Below the pieces are notes generated by a model. It was not told the DNA's origin, searched no databases, and saw only the letters and a program-made list of their open reading frames with translations. Positions 3,507 to 38,380 of a DNA stretch of 64,000 bases are shown here, in pieces (within the stretch, counting starts at the first letter, position 1; every line of letters begins with the position of its first letter). The DNA lies in assembly GCA_001941045.1 (NCBI GenBank), contig MSHD01000030.1, positions 19,528-83,527 of the forward strand, given 5' to 3'. Made by a program: the position numbers and the translations under genes. The DNA comes from Lachnospiraceae bacterium Zagget2 (lineage in GTDB: Bacteria; Bacillota; Clostridia; Lachnospirales; Lachnospiraceae).

Positions 3507-4122
3507 CGATACTCGTCTCCTTCCGGTTGCAGCCCTCGACGAGCGTCGTATTCACATCATCCTCATAAGTACGCATCTGCACTTCAATCGGCGTCGGATC
3601 CTTCGTGATCCGTTTTCCCCCGAAATGATTATAGAAAATAAGGACGCCGGCGGCAATGCCGATGGAATAGGTCAGCTCCAGTACCGTAAAACCGTCTGAA
3701 GGCTGCCCGGTGAGCAGCTCATAGGTGCGCGTAAAGACCTCTGCCACGCCGACGTCGTTATTGAAGGTCATGATCGAAAAGGCAGAGCCGAAGAAAATCA
3801 ACAGGCATATCAGCATGGCCTTAAGCCAGCTCCATCTGTCCTTCGCATAGTCCGGCGATTCATACTCGATGATAAAATCGGACTCGCCCAGATTCTGTAT
3901 CTCCAGATTTGGGTAAACCATGTGAATCAGTTCAATGACCTTCATCACTGAAAAAATATAGCGGTCCGTCTTCTGCGCCTGTATTTTCAGAAGCTTCAAA
4001 CTCTTCAGCCGCGCCTTCACAGCGCTGTCCGTACACTCCAGCTTTGCCACGTCGCCCAGCCGCACCTCCGCGTGGTCCACCTGCACGTTTCGTTCGATCT
4101 TCATATAGAGAATATCGCTCAT
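3496..4122 (-). CDS. spoVAA: Stage V sporulation protein AA
   Basis: FFGSAFSIMTFNNDV, YSIGIAAGVLIFYNHFG and DPTPIEVQMRTYEDD motifs; downstream of sigF. Confidence 0.9.
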   Translation of the reverse strand: MSDILYMKIERNVQVDHAEVRLGDVAKLECTDSAVKARLKSLKLLKIQAQKTDRYIFSVMKVIELIHMVYPNLEIQNLGESDFIIEYESPDYAKDRWSWLKAMLICLLIFFGSAFSIMTFNNDVGVAEVFTRTYELLTGQPSDGFTVLELTYSIGIAAGVLIFYNHFGGKRITKDPTPIEVQMRTYEDDVNTTLVEGCNRKETSIDVD

Positions 4123-4168
4123 GGATTCCGCCCTCCGCTCTTTTCAGTATGCGCAGTGGGCACTGTTT

Positions 4169-4903
4169 TTATGCGGATTCTCCGGTGAGCTGCTCCCGCA
4201 TGCGCCGCAGGATCTTCTTCTCCATCCGGCTCACCTGTACCTGTGACACGCCAAGAACCGCGGCTACCTCTGTCTGTGTCCGATCCTGCAGATAACGCAT
4301 GATAATGAGTTTTCGTTCCCGCTCAGGCAGATCCAGCAGCAGCTGTTCCAGCACAACCCGGTTCAGAAGCTGTTCTTTTTCTCCATCCTGAGGCTGACTC
4401 TCGATGCGGTCAAGCAGGCAGAGTTCGCTCCCATCTCTCTGCGGCGCAGTCCGGTAGATCGATTCCACCTCCATCCGAAACTCCATTGCCTGCACGGCCT
4501 CCTCCGCTGTAAGCCCGGTCAGTGCGGCGATCTCCTGAATGGTCGGATCGCGTCCTTTTTTCTGCCGGAAATCCTCCGTTTCCCGCCGGATCTTCCAGCT
4601 GTTTTCCTTCAGCGAGCGGCTCACCTTGACGATTCCGTCATCGCGCAGAAACCGCCGGATCTCCCCCGCAATCATCGGCACCGCATAGGTCGAGAACTTC
4701 ACCTCAAAGGAGGTGTCAAATTTATCTATGGCCTTGATCAACCCCATTGCGCCGATCTGAAAGAGATCCTCACTGTCTGTGCCACGACCCGCAAAGCGCC
4801 GGACGACACTCCATACAAGGCCCGTATTCTCTTCAACCAGTCGTTCTCTGGCGGTTTTATCCCCGTGGTGTGATCTCTCAATCAGTACCATCGTGTCTTC
4901 CAT
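4169..4903 (-). CDS. sigF: Sporulation sigma factor SigF
   Basis: GDKTARERLVEENTGLVWSVVRRF, DLFQIGAMGLIKAIDKFD, STYAVPMIAGEIRRFLRDDG; region 4 QTEVAAVLGVSQVQVSRMEK; third gene of spoIIA. Start reset to ATG 4903 (RBS GGAGG). Confidence 0.93.
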   Translation of the reverse strand: MEDTMVLIERSHHGDKTARERLVEENTGLVWSVVRRFAGRGTDSEDLFQIGAMGLIKAIDKFDTSFEVKFSTYAVPMIAGEIRRFLRDDGIVKVSRSLKENSWKIRRETEDFRQKKGRDPTIQEIAALTGLTAEEAVQAMEFRMEVESIYRTAPQRDGSELCLLDRIESQPQDGEKEQLLNRVVLEQLLLDLPERERKLIIMRYLQDRTQTEVAAVLGVSQVQVSRMEKKILRRMREQLTGESA

Positions 4904-4907
4904 CCGC

Positions 4908-5354
4908 TCATGAACCCTCCTGATGCTGCTCTCCCCGCCCCACACGTTTTTTCATGTGAATGGTTGTACCAAGCCCCGGTGCGGATTCCACACGGATCTC
5001 ATCCATGAACGCCTCCATGAACATGAATCCCAGGCCGGAACGCTCCAGATCAGGACGCGTTGTATACAGCGGCTCCATCGCCCGCTTCACATCGGGGATG
5101 CCGACGCCCTCGTCGTTCACCTGAATCTCCACAAGGTCCTCCTGAAGGCGTGCGCGGACCACAATGGTATGTACCTCTGACGGATATCCATGGATGATCG
5201 CGTTCGTGACCGCCTCCGACACAGCGGTGCGGATATCCGCCACTTCCTCCAGCGTCGGATTGAGCTGCGTCACAAAAGCCGCAACCGCAACCCGCGCAAA
5301 GGCCTCGTTTTCAGAGATGCTGTCAAATGCCAGCGTCATTTCATTTTTCATCAT
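4908..5354 (-). CDS. spoIIAB: Anti-sigma F factor
   Basis: SENEAFARVAVAAF, AVSEAVTNAIIHGY, DEGVGIPD, RSGLGFMFMEAFMD; start reset to MMKNEM. Confidence 0.95.
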   Translation of the reverse strand: MMKNEMTLAFDSISENEAFARVAVAAFVTQLNPTLEEVADIRTAVSEAVTNAIIHGYPSEVHTIVVRARLQEDLVEIQVNDEGVGIPDVKRAMEPLYTTRPDLERSGLGFMFMEAFMDEIRVESAPGLGTTIHMKKRVGRGEQHQEGS

Positions 5355-5664
5355 ACTCCTCCTTCTCCAGCCGGATATGCTGTTCAATACCGGACAACGC
5401 CAGTATCCGCCTGATCTGTTCATTCATATGGCTCACGAACATCCGCCCTTCCAGCGCCCGCATCATCCTGGCGCGCCCTAAGAGCAGTCCGATTCCGGCG
5501 CTGTCCATAAAAGCTGTCCCGGAGAAATCAAACTCCAGCTCCCAGATTGCCTCCGTCCGCAGCGCAGCATCCACACGACGCCGCACCTCCTCTGTGTAAT
5601 GATGATCCAGCTCCCGCGGCAAATGCACGATAAGCCGTCCTCCCCTTTTCTCCAGAATTCCCAT
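5341..5664 (-). CDS. spoIIAA: Anti-sigma F factor antagonist (STAS)
   Basis: ELDHH, FMDSAGIGLLLGR phospho-Ser motif; RBS AAAGGAG before ATG 5664. Confidence 0.92.
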   Translation of the reverse strand: MGILEKRGGRLIVHLPRELDHHYTEEVRRRVDAALRTEAIWELEFDFSGTAFMDSAGIGLLLGRARMMRALEGRMFVSHMNEQIRRILALSGIEQHIRLEKEEYDEK

Positions 5665-5685
5665 ATGCGCTCCTTTCATGATACA

Positions 5686-5718
5686 GAAAAAGGACGCCGT
5701 GCTCTTCGCACAGCGTCC
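5686..5718 (-). terminator. Intrinsic terminator-like hairpin after TPR gene
   Basis: Minus strand GGACGCTGTGC-GAAGA-GCACGGCGTCC followed by TTTTC. Confidence 0.6.
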
Positions 5719-5754
5719 CTTACCTCAGGGTATTTTTCTTTTGTATCTGCCGCT

Positions 5755-7110
5755 TTACAGGCTCTCGAGGAAAGCCTGTGAATCTGTCGCTTTCTGTGTA
5801 TTCGGGAACTCGGTGACTACTTTGCGGTAGTATATCTTCGCGTTCTCCGTGTCGCCGGATTTATGATAGGATCTGGCAAGGAAATACAGTGCATCCCCCT
5901 GCGTCGCATCGAGCTCGTAACACTTTTTCAGATCCTCGATCGCCGTTTCATAATCGCCGCTCTGGTAAGCCGCGTAACCGCTCGCATAGAGTGTGGATAC
6001 CGCCTCCGCGGCAAAATCCGCATACAGCACATCGTACAGGATCTGTCCGTCACTGTCAAGGGTGTCACGATCAACCTGTTCAATCAGCTCCAGCAGCGTC
6101 TCCGTATCCTCCGATGCATAGGCAGAGTAGGCGGCAAGCAGCGTCTCATAGCTCTCCAGCTTCTCCTGCGCCTCCTCCGATGCCTGGGCTGATGCCTCCG
6201 CCTCTTCCCGGAGCGAATTCAGCTCTGTCTCCATACTTTCGAGCGTAGCGGTCTTCGCGTCCAGCTGATCGCTGTACTCCGCGATGGCCTGATTCAGCTC
6301 GCTGCTCTGATTGCCCTCGATCGCCGGACGGATCAAAAATCCCATGACCGCCGCTCCGATCACAATTCCAATCAGCACATTCAGCACGGAATGAAGACCC
6401 GAATTGTCCTTGACGCCCACCGGCTGAATAATCGTCTCATTCCCGCTGACATAAGAGATCGAATCCCGCTGCTTCTCCTCCCTTGAAGAAGGCTTTTCCT
6501 CCCGCGCGTCCAGCTCCTGCAGATAGCGAAGCGCCCGGGTATTCGTACGGTCGACCTCGAGCACACGCTTTACCTCCGTCCGCGCTCTCGAAAAATTCTC
6601 CGCCTGAATGTAGAGAAGCGCAAGCAAAAGGTGTGCGTCCAGCAGGTGATAATTCACCGACAACACCTTCTTGAGCTGGATGATCGCGAGATCGTAGCTC
6701 CCCTGCTGACAGTAAAGCAGAGACTGATTGTATTTTCGGATCGTCGTGCCTATCCGCTCCAGCTCGGAGGGACTGTCCTCCACCGACTTGATGTAATCAT
6801 CCGCCGCATTTTTGCTTTTCTGATAGCTCCGGCTGATGATCCACTGGGTCAGCGCATCCACCACATCGCCCGTCTCAAAATAAATGAGCCCCAGAAGATT
6901 CCTCGCGTCCGTATTTTTCTTATTTATCTTCAGACTCTGGCGCAGCGAGACTGCCGCCCCCGTCAGATCGCGGACCCGCGCTTTCTCCAGGCCCTCGTTG
7001 TAATATCTGTTCGACATCTGCAGCATCTGGCGGTAGAGCTTTACATCCGCGCCACAATTTCCGCAGTAGTCCGTGTTCTTCAGAACCGCTCCGCAGTTAA
7101 AACACCTCAT
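5755..7110 (-). CDS. Zinc-ribbon + TPR membrane protein
   Basis: N-terminal CFNC...CGNC, TPR-like helices, one TM, coiled coil, C-terminal TPR (ALYFLARSYH...VVTEFPNT); start reset to MRCFNCG. Confidence 0.8.
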   Translation of the reverse strand: MRCFNCGAVLKNTDYCGNCGADVKLYRQMLQMSNRYYNEGLEKARVRDLTGAAVSLRQSLKINKKNTDARNLLGLIYFETGDVVDALTQWIISRSYQKSKNAADDYIKSVEDSPSELERIGTTIRKYNQSLLYCQQGSYDLAIIQLKKVLSVNYHLLDAHLLLALLYIQAENFSRARTEVKRVLEVDRTNTRALRYLQELDAREEKPSSREEKQRDSISYVSGNETIIQPVGVKDNSGLHSVLNVLIGIVIGAAVMGFLIRPAIEGNQSSELNQAIAEYSDQLDAKTATLESMETELNSLREEAEASAQASEEAQEKLESYETLLAAYSAYASEDTETLLELIEQVDRDTLDSDGQILYDVLYADFAAEAVSTLYASGYAAYQSGDYETAIEDLKKCYELDATQGDALYFLARSYHKSGDTENAKIYYRKVVTEFPNTQKATDSQAFLESL

Positions 7111-31498: not shown

Positions 31499-31670
31499 AA
31501 ACACTCCTTATCTCCACGAGAGAAATCTTAAAAAATATATTCGATAGGTCTCTATCGTTCGATCAGTATATCTCCCTCGACACATCATGCCCAGATGCAT
31601 AAATATTCATTGCAACAAATCGAAAAACTGGAAGTTGTCAGCAACATGACAACAGATCAAAAAATTCAAT

Positions 31671-32594
31671 TTATATACAGTTCATGATTACACTGATCAT
31701 CATTTCTTTTTCATCTGGATTAGATTCTGCAACCATAATTGTCAACGCAACCAGTGTATGATCATCGATTGTTTTTCCCCATTTACAAACAATGCCTCAT
31801 TTTTATTTAAGAAATACTGCCGCTGCGATCCGTTTATTTCCATCAGCGAAGCTATGGTTTTTCGTAATAAAATACAATAAGTTAGCTGCTTTCTCCTCCA
31901 ATGTGGGATACAGGTCATTTCCGCCGAAACTTTGATAAATCGCACCAATGCTTCCTTTAAAAGAATCATCCTTCTCTTTTCCAAACAAGGTACTTTCGCT
32001 CCCGAATTTCATATGATCAATAAGCACTCGACACTCTTCATAAGTCAAAACATAGGTCGCCTGATTTCCATTTGGACGCGACATATTCTGATGATCATAC
32101 GCGTCTAAAAGATCTAGCGCCTGACTATATTTCTCTACTACAGACAATACCTGCTTTGTATCAAGGTTATTCTCCGCACGCTTCATCACCCGAATCACCT
32201 CGTTTAACTGATTCATACGGTTATGATTCACTGCGTATCCCTTAATTATGTATTCCTTCAGAACCGAGTTCGCCCAACGTCTGAATTCAACTCCTCGTTT
32301 TGATTTGACACGGTAGCCAACGGATATAATCACATCTAAACTATAGTGCTCAATCTGACGCAAAACTTCACGTTCTCCCTCTTTTTGAACTGTCGCAATT
32401 TTTGCGACAGTTGCGGATTCCCTGTCCAGTTCTTCTTTTAAAGCATTTGAAATATGCTTACCAATCGTTTTAATATCTCTGTCAAATAATTCTGACATTT
32501 GATTTCTATTAAGCCATACCGTATCATTTTCCAAAATTACAGGTAATTGTATCTTGTGATCTGTACTTTCAAATAACACAAGTTTTTGCTCCAT
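31671..32594 (-). pseudogene. RhuM-like N-terminus + Fic/Doc domain, frameshifted near C-terminus
   Basis: TVWLNRNQMSELF, YSLDVIISVGYRVKS, HSFADGNKR; stop right after AAAVFLK; NKNEALFVNGEK and TIDDHTLVALTIMVAESNPDEKEMMISVIMNCI (stop 31671) sit in two other frames. Confidence 0.8.
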
Positions 32595-34274: not shown

Positions 34275-35090
34275 TTACTGCCAGTTTCGTTTCAGAACCT
34301 CGCTTTTCAGCAGAAGGGTGCTCCGTGACGTCTCCTTGACAGGGTGAAGTTTTCCACGCCTGATCAGGTCATTGATGTTCTGTCTGGAGCAGCCCAGTAT
34401 TTCTGCCGCCTCCGCGGTATTGATAATCCGCTGCGCCGCAAAAGCGCGAAAATCTTCCATCACGAGCGGGACGCGCTCTCCGTATTGATATAAAAGATAG
34501 TCCGGAATATCCATATTCTCATCCCAGGCGACTCCATGTCCGCCGATCTCCATCCGCACGCTGTCAAACAGCTCCTCATTTCTCAGCAGAACAGAAAAAC
34601 GATCGCGTTCCCTGAACCAGCCGCTTAAGTCACATCTGCGCACCAGTCCGTCCCGAAAGAAAACAAGTAGTGTGCTATGCCCCAGAGAAATAACATCCTC
34701 GACCCGTTTCTCAAAGCGTCCCTGTATCTGCGGCGGCAACTCCTGCTCCTTTATCGGGAGGAGATAACAGTCGTCCTGCGCGCATCTTCCCAGGGACAGC
34801 AGAAGCAGTTCATATTCATCATACTCTTTCAGGCCGTTTTCTTTCAGCACCTGCCCGATATTCTGGCGATCCGGCGGAACAATTCTCTGCTGCACCCACA
34901 TTCTGCTCCAGTACGAGTTGACCGTTTTCTCTCCCTTTTTCACAAAGGAAGACAGCAGCAGCGGCGTCTCCCACTCGTCTGCTTCATCGGGAAGTTCGAT
35001 GTAAAAACGCTTTTCCGCCTCATAGTAGAGAAGCCATGCCAGATCCTTCTGAAGCTCCGCGCTCTCATCCTTGATTGCAAATATTTTCAT
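34275..35090 (-). CDS. HipA-N-like / DUF2442-like / excisionase-type HTH fusion
   Basis: RIVPPDRQNIGQVLKENGLKEYDEYELLLLSLGRCAQD; LLVFFRDG..CDL..FDSV..GGHGVAW..DI; INTAEAAEILGCSRQNINDLIRRGKL. Confidence 0.7.
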   Translation of the reverse strand: MKIFAIKDESAELQKDLAWLLYYEAEKRFYIELPDEADEWETPLLLSSFVKKGEKTVNSYWSRMWVQQRIVPPDRQNIGQVLKENGLKEYDEYELLLLSLGRCAQDDCYLLPIKEQELPPQIQGRFEKRVEDVISLGHSTLLVFFRDGLVRRCDLSGWFRERDRFSVLLRNEELFDSVRMEIGGHGVAWDENMDIPDYLLYQYGERVPLVMEDFRAFAAQRIINTAEAAEILGCSRQNINDLIRRGKLHPVKETSRSTLLLKSEVLKRNWQ

Positions 35091-35889
35091 ATACGCACCA
35101 CCGTTTCCAGATCATATCCCATATTTTATCCCGAAGATTCTGCGAAATCACATCGTCCAGCCCCTGCATAAGAAGCGCTCTGTGTTCGGGCAAGAGTCGC
35201 CGCAGCTTCGGGAACTGCCCCGGCGGTATGAATGTCAGATTTTCCTGTGTTGATCTGGAACCGATCCAGGTGTTGGTGAGCCGATCTTCCATCACGTCAT
35301 GCCCCGCGACGCTCTCCTCTGTAAGGCAGCTGAACAGTAAAGACAAGCCGTGGTCAAACAGCGGAGCCAGACGCAACGTCCGTTTCCGGCCATCACGCAG
35401 CAGTTCCATATTCGCGCCATGACGATCCCTGTTCAGAATAAGATAATCCACCACAAACATGGTATAAATATAGTCTGCCCACCCGTTGCGGATACAGAAA
35501 TCCAGTGGTGTTTCCCCTTTTTGATGCTCGCTTTCGTAATATACGTCCAGCGCAATCTTGCTCTCGCCCCGCTGCTTGAAATCGCGGGAAGCGCAGAGAA
35601 ATACTTCCTGCCGCCGCTCGCCAACCAGAATATCCGCATGAATCAGCTGATAATGCAGATGCTCTACACCCAGTACCGTGAGCAGCCGGTCAACAATCAG
35701 TTCATTTACACATTCATGACCGATCACGCCACGCATACTATCGTAATTAGAAAGCTTATAATAAATCTTTTCTCCTCCTAATTCCGAGTATGCTTTCAGG
35801 AACGATCCGGCTGTCCCTGAAGAATTTCGGCTTCTCGTCCAGGATAAATATGTGAGATCCTGCTTTTCCAATACAATATCTCCGCCCAT
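35065..35889 (-). CDS. HipA-like kinase
   Basis: GTAGSFLK, HECVNELIV, VDYLILNRDRHGANM, LAPLFDHGLSL; overlaps the downstream gene by 26 nt. Confidence 0.8.
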   Translation of the reverse strand: MGGDIVLEKQDLTYLSWTRSRNSSGTAGSFLKAYSELGGEKIYYKLSNYDSMRGVIGHECVNELIVDRLLTVLGVEHLHYQLIHADILVGERRQEVFLCASRDFKQRGESKIALDVYYESEHQKGETPLDFCIRNGWADYIYTMFVVDYLILNRDRHGANMELLRDGRKRTLRLAPLFDHGLSLLFSCLTEESVAGHDVMEDRLTNTWIGSRSTQENLTFIPPGQFPKLRRLLPEHRALLMQGLDDVISQNLRDKIWDMIWKRWCVYENICNQG

Positions 35890-35906
35890 AAAGACCTCCT
35901 GAAAAA

Positions 35907-35947
35907 AGTATAGCCAACTACTTGTCATATGTCAAGTAGTTGGCTAT
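35907..35947 (-). promoter_or_regulatory. Sigma-A promoter embedded in a 38-bp palindrome (also terminator-like)
   Basis: ATAGCCAACTACTTG-TCATATGT-CAAGTAGTTGGCTAT; minus strand TTGACA(35930-35)-N17-TATACT(35907-12) followed by TTTTT. Confidence 0.85.
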
Positions 35948-35982
35948 GATTTTCATCCGAACTTCCGCCTCGGTCTCGTGTT

Positions 35983-36354
35983 TTAATCGGAGGCCAGAAT
36001 CATCTCCTTCAATTCTCTGCAGGCCTTCAGAATTTCCCCGATCATCTCCGGACTGATTCCGTCAAGGTGGAGCCCGCAGCTGCAGACCACGGTGCAGTTT
36101 TTCTGAGTGGCAACCGCCTCCGCGATCTCACGGGCGACCACTTCCTCCTTATGTCCCAGGCAGTTCAGCACGGAAGTCGTCGCGCTAATGCCTTTTCCTG
36201 TCAGGCTGGGGCGCGCCGCGGAAAGACAGACGGAGCCGACATGTCCACCCGCCTCATCCCACAGACAGACCGTGTAATCCCTGCCCATCTCGATCACTTC
36301 GCAGTGCAGCGTGGTCCCGCACACGGATTTCTCATAATACCTCCTCATCCCCAT
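35983..36354 (-). CDS. lpdD: LpdD-like prenylated-flavin chaperone
   Basis: GGHVGSV, LGHKEEVVA, TVVCSCGLHLD; follows ubiD-ubiX. Confidence 0.7.
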   Translation of the reverse strand: MGMRRYYEKSVCGTTLHCEVIEMGRDYTVCLWDEAGGHVGSVCLSAARPSLTGKGISATTSVLNCLGHKEEVVAREIAEAVATQKNCTVVCSCGLHLDGISPEMIGEILKACRELKEMILASD

Positions 36355-36905
36355 CTTCTGAAATCCTCCGTTTCAATTCCAAAGGGCTGCAGCAGTCTTC
36401 CCACAATCTGTCGTTCCATCTCCGCGAGGCTCCCTGGATTGTGATAATAGGTGAGCACCGGCGGCATGAGAAAGACGCCCGGAATCCGCGAAAGCTTCAG
36501 CATGTTTTCCAGATGAATCGAGCTTAAGGGCGTCTCCCGCACCGCAAGAACGAGCTTTCGCTGCTCCTTGATCGTCACATCCGCCGCGCGCAGCAGCAGA
36601 TTATCGCTGTAACCATTCGCAATGCCGCTGACCGTTTTCATGGCGCAGGGCAGGATGATCATGCCGTCTGTCGGAAAACTGCCGCTCGCGACCGCTGCGC
36701 CGATATCGCTGTTGTCATAGCTCACGTCCGCGAGCGCGCGGATATCGTCCGCGGCAAGGTCACTCTCGTACTTTGCGGTCAGCTCTGCTCCCCGGGTGAA
36801 AATGACATGCGTCTCCACCTCCGGATTTTTCTTCAGTTCTTTCAAAAGGCATACGGCCAACGGAAAGCCGCTGGCTCCTCTGATGCCCACAATCAGACGT
36901 TTCAT
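36345..36905 (-). CDS. ubiX: Flavin prenyltransferase UbiX/LpdB
   Basis: IVGIRGASG, ASGSFPTDGMIILPCAMKT, DNLLLRAADVTIKEQRKLVLAVRETPL, MPPVLTYY. Confidence 0.93.
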   Translation of the reverse strand: MKRLIVGIRGASGFPLAVCLLKELKKNPEVETHVIFTRGAELTAKYESDLAADDIRALADVSYDNSDIGAAVASGSFPTDGMIILPCAMKTVSGIANGYSDNLLLRAADVTIKEQRKLVLAVRETPLSSIHLENMLKLSRIPGVFLMPPVLTYYHNPGSLAEMERQIVGRLLQPFGIETEDFRRWG

Positions 36906-38380
36906 ATTTTCATCTCGTCAGCCCACTTCTCCATGTCGATGTCCATGAACTTCGCACGTTCGAAGCGTTCTTTCTGGTCATAGGGTACCGTGCAGTCGAA
37001 GATCGCCTTGCAGGCCACGCCCACCGCGCGGATATCCGGTGTGTACTCGGGATTGTTCGACGGGTCGAGCGGATGGCACTGCACGCCCGGTATCATGATA
37101 ATATCCTTGTCCGCCTGGAAGCGCGTCGTCATCGCCCACAGCACATCCTTGATGTCAAAGGGATCGACGTCTTCATCTACCAGAAATACATGTTTGAGCT
37201 CTGCGAAGGCGCTGAAAGCCAGCAAACCCGCCTGTCTCTGCCGCCCTTCATCGGAAGGCATTGTCTTTTTGAACTGCATGACCGCAATGTATTTCCCACC
37301 ACCTGAGGAGGCGCAGTACACATTCTTAAGTCTGCCGGGCATGGCCTTCTCCACCATGGCGAGGATGCTGGCCTCGGTCGGTATACCCGCCATGGAGACG
37401 TGCTCCTCGGACGGTCCGATGCAGGTCTGCATGATCGGGTTCCGCCGCGTTGTGACCGCCTTGACCTTGATGATCGGCAGCGCCGGATTGGCCGGTCCGC
37501 AGTATCCGGGGAACTCAGGCATCGCCTTGCCGGTGCCGGACTGAATATCCTCCTGAATCCTTCTTCCCGGCAGCACTTCTCCTTCGATCACATACTCCGC
37601 GTTCGCGATCGCGCGCTCATTGATCGTCAGGCATTTCACCAGCTCCACCGGTTTCTTCCGGATCGCGCCCGCAGCCTGCAGCTCGTCATAACCGAGCGGC
37701 GTCGTGGGCGGCTCAAAGCAGGCCGCAATCTCGATCGCCGGATCCACTCCGATCGAAATCGAGATGGGAAGCGGTTCATTCCGCGCTTCCGCCAGCTCGT
37801 AGAAATGTCCGATATGGCGCGCACCCGGCTGGAAGAAAATTGAAATCTCATCCTTGCTCTGCAGGCACATGCGGTGAATCGTCACATCCGAGGTCCCGGT
37901 CTCCGGGCTCGTCGCGTAGCACATGCCGAGCGTGATATAGGGGCCGGCGTCCTCCTCCGTGTTCGTCGGGGCCGGAACCAGCTTCCTCACATCAAAGTCG
38001 GGATCCGTCGCCAGATGCACGATTTCCTGGCACTTTGCCTGCTCATTCGGGATCACAACCGGCGGCAGCGGGTTGGATACGCTGTCCTTCAGCAGAAATC
38101 CCAGCTTCTGCGGATCACAGTCCAGCAGCGCTCCCACGCGCTTTCTGCTTGCCAGCACACCGATCGCGACGCGCGCGTCCGGGTGTCCTTTCACATTGTT
38201 AAATACCATCGCCGGGCCTTCCTTTGTGGGGCGCATCACCGTCCCGCCTGCTCCCACATGGCGATAAACGCCGGAGAGCTCCGCCATTGGCTCGACCTCC
38301 ACATCCGTTTCCAGCAGCTGCCCCGGCATCGTTTTTAAAAATTCCAGGGCTGAACGCAGGCTGTCTACCTGATTTCCCAT
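36902..38380 (-). CDS. lpdC: UbiD-family decarboxylase, LpdC/AroY (gallate/protocatechuate) type
   Basis: AELSGVYRHVGAGGTVMRPTKEGPAM matches the AroY/LpdC N-terminus; DVTIHRMC, PEFPGYCG, EEHVSMAGIPTEASI, HPLDPS. Confidence 0.85.
   Translation of the reverse strand: MGNQVDSLRSALEFLKTMPGQLLETDVEVEPMAELSGVYRHVGAGGTVMRPTKEGPAMVFNNVKGHPDARVAIGVLASRKRVGALLDCDPQKLGFLLKDSVSNPLPPVVIPNEQAKCQEIVHLATDPDFDVRKLVPAPTNTEEDAGPYITLGMCYATSPETGTSDVTIHRMCLQSKDEISIFFQPGARHIGHFYELAEARNEPLPISISIGVDPAIEIAACFEPPTTPLGYDELQAAGAIRKKPVELVKCLTINERAIANAEYVIEGEVLPGRRIQEDIQSGTGKAMPEFPGYCGPANPALPIIKVKAVTTRRNPIMQTCIGPSEEHVSMAGIPTEASILAMVEKAMPGRLKNVYCASSGGGKYIAVMQFKKTMPSDEGRQRQAGLLAFSAFAELKHVFLVDEDVDPFDIKDVLWAMTTRFQADKDIIMIPGVQCHPLDPSNNPEYTPDIRAVGVACKAIFDCTVPYDQKERFERAKFMDIDMEKWADEMKI

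Follow-up and report, generated by a model that had tools for sequence, protein, structure and literature searches.

A kinase-first Hip-type cassette with a three-domain HipS-like/DUF2442/helix-turn-helix partner in Lachnospiraceae bacterium Zagget2, a candidate two-gene toxin-antitoxin module

Hip kinases are the classic persistence and toxin-antitoxin kinases, and a two-gene locus in Lachnospiraceae bacterium Zagget2 raises the question of whether such a kinase can be both neutralised and transcriptionally controlled by a single companion protein. The locus lies in a 64,000-nt stretch of contig MSHD01000030.1 (positions 19,528 to 83,527 of the forward strand; hereafter the window, the numbering of which is used throughout), in which two overlapping genes encode a 274-aa kinase followed by a 271-aa partner. 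A first-pass annotation had described a kinase-first, HipA-like operon at 34275-35889, with a partner that joins a HipA-N/HipS-like domain to a DUF2442-like domain and an excisionase-type helix-turn-helix (HTH). These outer coordinates proved exact, and both genes lie where that annotation had placed them, on the minus strand. On balance, the comparisons described below favour a Hip-type toxin-antitoxin (or abortive-infection) cassette that is kinase-first, self-contained, and horizontally mobile, and in which the partner would act as both antitoxin and repressor.

The product of the first gene can be securely assigned to the HipA superfamily from its fold and motifs. It carries a Gly-rich loop (S23-S-G-T-A-G-S-F-L-K32, 35794-35823), a catalytic motif (D155-R-H-G-A-N160, 35410-35427), and a Mg-binding motif (PLFD179HG, 35347-35364), and residues G25, G28, K32, D155, H157, N160, and D179 were invariant across 120 homologues; the set of four core Hip-kinase motifs is made up of these three and the activation region. 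The AlphaFold2 (AF2) model of the kinase had a predicted local distance difference test (pLDDT) score of 88, and the Foldseek search retrieved CtkA (3akj/3akk; E 7.5e-9, template modelling [TM] score 0.60), HipA (3dnt; E 1.5e-4), HipT (7ab5_C; E 1.2e-3), and Legionella HipT Lpg2370 (7vkb; E 1.9e-3). CtkA was also found when PDB was searched by sequence (E 4e-4), and the protein matched PADLOC profile PDC-M03A, which represents the HipI kinase, at E 6e-9. The fold shared with CtkA, HipA, and HipT, together with the invariant motifs and the PDC-M03A match, bears out the earlier description of the operon as kinase-first and HipA-like. Because the Gly-rich loop begins at residue 23, at the very N terminus, the kinase is a core-only enzyme without the N-subdomain 1 of HipA, as are the core-only Hip kinases HipI, HipJ, HipG, and HipM (Gerdes et al. 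2021, PMC8262856).

The partner belongs to a large family (1444 homologue clusters at 90% identity, almost all of 271 aa). Domain parsing with AlphaFold had been proposed as a check on its architecture, and the AF2 model (pLDDT 89.6, predicted TM score 0.81) resolves three domains. The C-terminal domain matched HTH_17 (PF12728; 34.5 bits against a cut-off of 27, E 2.5e-8), as did 67 of the 89 partner relatives in our alignment, which share only 30-59% identity. It was also matched by the PHROG excisionase profile (7e-17) and, in Foldseek, by Xis, BldC, and RdfS (TM ~0.7). By sequence and predicted structure, it is an excisionase/MerR-like winged HTH DNA-binding domain. The central domain scored below the Pfam cut-off for DUF2442 (PF10387; 18.0 bits versus 23.9, E 0.0033); among the relatives, 35 of the 89 matched DUF2442 at E<=0.01 (best E 4.6e-9), and Foldseek matched the partner to NE0471, a DUF2442 + HTH protein (2auw, probability 1.0), and to 3k8r (probability 0.96-0.97). 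The central domain is probably a dimerisation module. The two C-terminal domains were therefore correctly recognised in the first-pass annotation, the HTH through a Pfam match above the cut-off and the DUF2442 domain through its relatives and fold.

The N-terminal domain, which matched no Pfam or NCBIfam family, had been called HipA-N/HipS-like because of a sequence motif. The motif is present at residues 69-106 (RIVPPDRQNIGQVLKENGLKEYDEYELLLLSLGRCAQD), with two of the spacings that had been written for it ("LL..GR" and "GR..D") off by one or two residues. It is the most conserved part of the partner family: R69, P72, R75, Q76, N77, Y90, G101, C103, Q105, and D106 are invariant or nearly so in the 89 sequences, and the conserved core of the domain reads W65...R69-I-V-P72-x-x-R75-Q-N77...Y90-D...G101-R-C-x-Q-D106. 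Homologues of the domain fell into 648 clusters at 50% identity, nearly all of ~270 aa. In the AF2 model, the domain is predicted to consist of strands at residues 2-8, 16-23, and 28-32, a short strand at 56-57, three helices at 59-67, 75-84, and 92-98 that form a subdomain spanning 59-98, and a strand at 108-113, with one extra helix at 44-51. This predicted order agrees with that published for HipS, in which four strands are followed by a three-helix kinase-binding subdomain and a fifth strand. When the whole partner was used as the Foldseek query, the fourth-ranked match was 7czo (probability 0.90, TM 0.56, 125 columns), chain A of which is HI_0666 from H. influenzae, the HipS that hipBST encodes as a stand-alone protein. 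Furthermore, PADLOC PDC-M03B profiles were matched by 65 of the 89 relatives (best E 2e-8) and by the window partner (E 1e-4), residues 68-114 of which align to profile positions 74-121 of 232; the equation of PDC-M03B with HipN, the HIRAN partner, rests on the PADLOC profiles and on one paper's description of PDC-M03.

Homologues of the N-domain also occur as stand-alone proteins of 123-134 aa, encoded downstream of related kinases on Firmicutes plasmids. Their hosts are Clostridium butyricum, Paenisporosarcina, Niallia, Bacillus thuringiensis, and Alkalihalophilus (loci L087, L088, L089, L092, and L094), and they matched the N-domain both sequence by sequence (P 1e-10 to 3e-8) and in hhalign (probability 96.8%, E 3e-10). 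A homologue search started from the 129-aa partner of C. butyricum returned only 2 proteins. On a Clostridium botulinum plasmid (NZ_CP063961.1), the domain is fused ahead of a HipA_C-type kinase core within a 390-aa protein (L093:1545-2717). This is the domain order of HipA, and the protein, annotated as "hypothetical protein" and accompanied by similar matches (H55, H59, and H62), appears to be a full-length HipA-like kinase of a divergent clade. In yet another arrangement (L091:3214-4699), a 269-aa kinase is paired with a 232-aa partner in which the HipS-like domain is followed by a low-complexity linker and an Xre-type HTH_3 domain, with no DUF2442. Because the relatives are stand-alone, HTH_3-fused, HIRAN-fused, and kinase-fused, the N-domain is the kinase-associated element that stays constant, and the DNA-binding head can be exchanged (none, DUF2442-HTH_17, HTH_3, or HIRAN). 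That the N-domain is HipS-like is supported by the agreement of its fold, the PDC-M03B profile, the stand-alone relatives, and the fusion in HipA order. The earlier label is supported in this sense; sequence comparisons with canonical HipA-N, HipS, and Couple_hipA gave no significant match.

Two further arrangements were noted. On the B. thuringiensis plasmid NZ_CP045024.1 (L092:804-3983), the genes for a 262-aa Hip-like kinase and its 123-aa HipS-like partner are clustered with those for an FHA-domain protein and a PP2C phosphatase, so that the pair is embedded in a phospho-signalling context. In P0364 (L090), a HipS-like N-domain (residues 1-112) is joined to a GluRS-type anticodon-binding domain (PF19269, E 2.3e-30), on a 781-bp scaffold too short to tell a real fusion from a chimeric assembly. 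This arrangement drew our attention because HipA targets GltX.

Across loci, the two genes are lost unequally. In a sample anchored on the partner (71 evaluable loci), an intact kinase open reading frame (ORF) lay upstream in 60, and in 11 of the 71 the kinase was lost while the partner was intact. These 11 losses represent four independent internal deletions: the L018 type, present in eight loci, and those of L011, L012, and L082. Each removed the catalytic core and kept the kinase start and the 3' segment with the partner's ribosome-binding site, and the promoter and the candidate operator (see below) were kept in all deletion types except L082, for which the 200 nt examined showed neither. 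In a sample anchored on the kinase (71 evaluable metagenome loci), the partner was intact in 68 and the N-domain was lost in none (0/71), the two real exceptions having lost the DUF2442/HTH part only. This asymmetry (Fisher's exact test: P 6e-4 per locus, P 0.048 per event) is the pattern predicted for a toxin and an essential antitoxin domain. Two loci had been listed as having a broken partner. One, L138:3279-4052, accounts for the remaining apparent break in this sample and is an adapter/assembly artefact that mimics an internal deletion and contains the peptide VGSEMCIRDR, which we take to be the translation of a sequencing-adapter remnant; the other, in L172, is a single stop codon.

A candidate binding site for the partner's HTH overlies the promoter of the operon. 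In 62 of 63 loci, the consensus CTTG(A/T)C(A/G)TA(T/C)G(A/T)CAAG occurs no more than 150 nt upstream of the kinase start, with a second copy ~33 nt further upstream in 28 loci, and 90 of the 102 such sites in 628 kb of loci are located in those upstream regions. We infer that the palindrome is the operator of a dimeric partner. In the window, it is the core of an extended inverted repeat that contains a perfect 15-bp stem (35910-35947); the promoter is embedded in this repeat directly upstream of the kinase. The outer arms differ in sequence among loci, and their complementarity is kept.

The inverted repeat also marks the upstream end of the conserved cassette. Since blastn homology to the window was confined to 34267/34275-35936/35946, that is, from the partner stop codon to the palindrome, the unit is, judged from nucleotide sequence, a 1.7-kb mobile cassette carrying its own promoter; the genes that flank it differ between loci. 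Relatives were found in at least 280 GTDB species representatives, mostly gut and rumen Lachnospiraceae, Oscillospiraceae, and Ruminococcaceae (carriers include Faecalibacterium, Ruthenibacterium, Oscillibacter, and Flintibacter), and in thousands of metagenome clusters. The cassette is not mainly carried by phages: phage and plasmid collections contained a single full-length copy, on a plasmid, and three IMG/VR contigs. A Foldseek comparison with viral structures gave HTH matches only, and a sequencing-run search gave weak matches only, in three runs. In public records, the proteins are labelled "hypothetical protein", "helix-turn-helix domain-containing protein", or "DUF2442 domain-containing".

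The toxin-antitoxin interpretation, to which we give somewhat better than even chances, can be stated as a mechanism. The first gene would encode a compact HipA-superfamily Ser/Thr kinase without the N-terminal lid, N-subdomain 1. The second gene, presumably coupled to it in translation through the overlap, would supply a single chain doing the jobs that are divided between HipS and HipB in hipBST. Its N-terminal HipS-like domain may dock where N-subdomain 1 sits in HipA and hold the kinase inactive, with Trp65 and the R-I-V-P...R-Q-N helix subdomain possibly acting against the Gly-rich loop. The DUF2442 domain would dimerise the partner, whose HTH_17 domains would repress the operon by occupying the 16-bp palindrome that covers the -35 box. 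Loss or titration of the partner, as might follow from proteolysis or phage infection, would release the kinase, which would then phosphorylate an essential substrate and stop growth; if HipA and HipT are a guide, this substrate may be a translation factor, for instance an aminoacyl-tRNA synthetase. The putative antitoxin and repressor roles of the partner, like the inhibition, dimerisation, operator binding, toxicity, target, and trigger, are proposed from homology and comparative genomics.

Several observations weigh against this interpretation. The kinase itself misses the Pfam gathering score of HipA_C (PF07804; 18.3 versus 30.5 bits, E 0.002); the related C. butyricum kinase passes it with 36.7 bits. 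At the sequence level, the N-domain profile found no HipA or HipS match in PDB, Pfam applied to 22 N-domains gave no Couple_hipA match, and hmmsearch with the N-domain found nothing in E. coli HipA. In hhalign, comparison with 16 diverse HipA N-subdomains (drawn from Table S1 of Gerdes et al. 2021 and from E. coli K-12) was non-significant (P 0.15-0.18), the alignment being colinear, with RIVPPD over LLPD and GRC over G(E/R)DC. The structural match to 7czo has an E value of 0.12, obtained with the whole protein as query, and is of moderate strength. Eight of the 11 kinase-less loci derive from one deletion spread by a mobile element, so that the independent events are few. The palindrome, as a hairpin with long covarying arms, could equally be a terminator or insulator. 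The neighbours of the cassette in the window look like housekeeping genes and not like a defence island. Finally, the equivalent domain of HipA is an integral, non-inhibitory part of the enzyme, and homology by itself is therefore no basis for predicting inhibition.

This last point leads to the main rival, a split but active kinase, in which the N-domain would be N-subdomain 1 provided in trans and needed for activity or substrate choice, and in which the partner would tether an active kinase to DNA or serve as a regulatory subunit in signalling or mobile-element control. The homologous domain in HipA does belong to an active enzyme, the fusion at L093 joins the N-domain to a kinase in one chain, and the finding that an intact kinase never occurs without the N-domain fits a requirement for activity as well as one for neutralisation. 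However, four separate deletions have removed the kinase core and kept the partner and its expression signals, which is the classic pattern of a toxin and would be unexpected for a mutually dependent enzyme, and the nearest characterised split system, HipS/HipT, is inhibitory (PMC10627512). We consequently regard a split, active kinase as unlikely.

The kinase-deleted copies also bear on a second rival. A partner-only allele recurs within one element in seven species (L018, L021, L024, L025, L026, L029, and L033), the hosts of which include Flintibacter, Oscillibacter, Dysosmobacter, and Hominicoprocola. In most of these species, the element comprises a protein of 274 aa, a zinc-finger/primase-like one of 363 aa, an ORF of 104 aa, the partner (4001-4816 in most), and a 576-aa large serine recombinase (4960-6690); it could be a mobile element that carries an orphan antitoxin. 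Alternatively, the partner might be mainly an excisionase-like or repressor-type regulator of mobile elements that is modulated by the kinase, for example through phosphorylation, with no growth-arresting toxin involved. Its HTH is of the excisionase class, the kinase-less partner has been kept in eight species, in seven of these it lies directly upstream of the 576-aa recombinase in the primase-bearing element, and some loci lie near integrases or TnpV. Nevertheless, the recombinase-linked copies are secondary, since they keep the kinase promoter and the first ~34 and last ~10 codons of the kinase; most loci, including that in the window, have no adjacent recombinase; the operator is at the cassette's own promoter and not at element ends; and related kinases have stand-alone N-domain partners without any DNA-binding domain. 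This makes a dedicated mobile-element regulator decidedly improbable. The related idea that the orphan partners are ancestral recombinase-linked excisionases was rejected on the grounds of the retained kinase remnants and operator.

Least probable is that the resemblance to HipS is superficial, with an unrelated small alpha/beta module in an ordinary transcription factor that is merely co-transcribed with the kinase: the hhalign result against N-subdomain 1 (P 0.15-0.18), the empty HMMER search, and the Foldseek E value of 0.12 are what this would produce, but it is contradicted by the Foldseek probability of 0.90 and TM of 0.56 with an identical order of secondary-structure elements, by the independent HipN (PDC-M03B) profile matches in 65 of the 89 relatives, by five other lineages in which the domain lies beside a core-only Hip kinase or is fused to one, and by the strict pairing (60/71 and 68-71/71 loci).

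The gene boundaries and expression signals of the cassette are given in Table 1. The kinase starts at an ATG at 35889, and its homologues measure 273-274 aa. A longer ORF produced mechanically from 35928 was rejected because a ribosome-binding site precedes 35889 and the homologues have the shorter length; its start would also lie inside the promoter. A promoter was predicted at the equivalent position in L001 and L002. The ribosome-binding site of the partner (GGTGG) is located within the kinase codons for W-K-R-W, and this, together with the gene overlap, suggests translational coupling of the partner. The overlap measures 26 nt in 51 of the 60 loci that have an intact kinase; of the others, 5 have 32 nt and 4 have 35 nt.

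Table 1. Positions of the cassette's genes, partner domains, and expression signals in the window.
Feature	Position	Strand	Basis
Kinase gene (HipA-superfamily core Ser/Thr kinase; candidate toxin)	35065-35889	-	Fold, motifs, profiles
Partner gene (three domains; candidate antitoxin and autorepressor)	34275-35090	-	Homologues, AF2 model
Overlap of kinase 3' end and partner 5' end (26 nt)	35065-35090	-	ORF coordinates
Partner HipS-like domain (residues 1-118)	34737-35090	-	Fold, profile, homologues
Partner DUF2442-type domain (residues ~128-205)	34476-34709	-	Pfam in relatives, Foldseek
Partner HTH_17 domain (residues ~211-267)	34290-34460	-	Pfam, PHROG, Foldseek
Ribosome-binding site AGGAGG (5 nt 5' of the kinase ATG)	35895-35900	-	Read from sequence
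Predicted sigma-70-type promoter (TTGACA 35930-35935, 17-nt spacer, TATACT 35907-35912)	35907-35935	-	Consensus match, 11/12
Core 16-bp palindrome CTTGACATATGACAAG (candidate operator for the partner HTH; contains the -35 hexamer)	35921-35936	-	Conservation
Extended inverted repeat (25-nt arms, 88% complementary)	35904-35953	.	Repeat and terminator-like scans

Some neighbouring genes of the window were also noted. Directly upstream of the cassette, within 35983-38380 on the minus strand, a PAC_bac gene (bacterial proteasome-assembly-chaperone-like, E 2.6e-28) overlaps ORFs of 186 aa and 492 aa that look by eye like UbiX- and UbiD-type decarboxylase components; of these, only PAC_bac was tested. 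On the other side, at 31803-32594 on the minus strand, a 263-aa protein combines an N-terminal RhuM-family domain (E 9.5e-27) with a C-terminal Fic/DOC segment that ends at the ORF end. This ORF lies in a low-GC stretch (0.36-0.40 at 31500-32500) and is possibly a Fic/Doc toxin-like gene that has been truncated, or the remnant of a mobile element.

Ten Hip organisations have been published, of which the kinase-first ones are hipIN (with a HipS-HIRAN partner), hipJS (HipS), hipMP (resolvase-like), and hipEB/hipAB (HTH partner), and a HipS-like-DUF2442-HTH partner is absent from these ten (Gerdes et al. 2021, PMC8262856). Our literature search on DUF2442, HipS-like domains, and HipN/HipI found no description of a kinase with this partner layout either. 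The layout thus appears to be a hitherto undescribed variant of the known Hip toxin-antitoxin/defence family, and the suggestion of the first-pass annotation that the organisation was new has held up against both the ten classes and the literature searched. Hip diversity has been mapped mainly in Proteobacteria, with only 5% of 1,239 kinases coming from Firmicutes (Gerdes et al. 2021, PMC8262856). Should the cassette prove to be a phage-defence or addiction module, it would be one that is common in the human gut microbiome and has gone unrecognised. A natural fusion of HipS and repressor would offer a compact two-protein system for studying HipS-type inhibition of a core kinase and for testing in what way neutralisation and transcriptional autoregulation are linked, and the relatives add a modular picture of a constant, putatively kinase-binding domain with interchangeable DNA-binding heads. 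A more far-reaching proposal, which we consider doubtful, is that the cassette represents an eleventh organisation of Hip, one that is very abundant in gut Clostridia and in which one polypeptide is both antitoxin and autorepressor of an abortive-infection kinase and the partner-only copies on mobile elements are anti-defence genes; were it true, those copies on the serine-recombinase element would provide portable immunity against the resident kinase.

Among characterised proteins, the kinase has its best structural and sequence match in CtkA (JHP0940) of Helicobacter pylori, likewise a HipA-like core kinase without N-subdomain 1. In contrast to the window kinase, with which it shares only ~14-16% identity, CtkA has been described as a secreted proinflammatory kinase rather than as one half of a two-gene cassette that includes a HipS-like partner. 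The window partner can be superposed, over its C-terminal two thirds, on NE0471 (2auw), in which DUF2442 is likewise followed by an HTH, and DUF2442 has been described as frequent in antitoxins, as in the DUF4160/DUF2442 toxin-antitoxin pairs. The toxin here would be a kinase and not DUF4160, and the partner differs from the NE0471-type and DUF2442 systems in its additional N-terminal HipS-like domain and in an HTH of the HTH_17 class.

With hipBST (E. coli O127, H. influenzae, and Legionella), the cassette shares a kinase separated from the equivalent of N-subdomain 1, and the best structural match of the window N-domain is H. influenzae HipS (7czo). In hipBST, the antitoxin is HipS, which acts on the Gly-rich loop via Trp65, and a separate HTH protein autoregulates the operon (PMC10627512). 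However, hipBST comprises three genes in the order B-S-T and uses an Xre-type DNA-binding domain, whereas the cassette comprises two, T-(S+B), and uses HTH_17 with DUF2442; the window N-domain has no detectable sequence similarity to the hipBST HipS proteins, and the window kinase resembles CtkA and HipI more closely than HipT. The hipJS organisation, compared here by its description, has the same order of a kinase followed by a HipS-type partner. The plasmid pairs L087, L088, L089, L092, and L094, whose partners are homologous to the window N-domain, have this very layout; the window partner differs in its two extra domains, for predicted dimerisation and DNA binding.

The cassette also closely resembles hipIN (PDC-M03). 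In both, the leading gene specifies a short core-only kinase, the downstream partner begins with a HipS-like domain followed by a nucleic-acid-binding domain, and both proteins of the window match the corresponding PDC-M03A and PDC-M03B profiles. HipN's HipS-like domain has been proposed to neutralise its kinase (Gerdes et al. 2021, PMC8262856), and hipIN, a candidate defence system of PADLOC, is itself experimentally uncharacterised. Unlike HipN, neither the window partner nor its 89 relatives had a HIRAN match, DUF2442 and HTH_17 taking that place. The cassette is counted as a family separate from hipIN because both profiles match weakly, with 6e-9 for the kinase and 1e-4 for the partner in the window. 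By descent, it is nearest to hipIN and hipJS, and in its division of labour it resembles a hipBST condensed into two genes, HipS and repressor being parts of a single chain.

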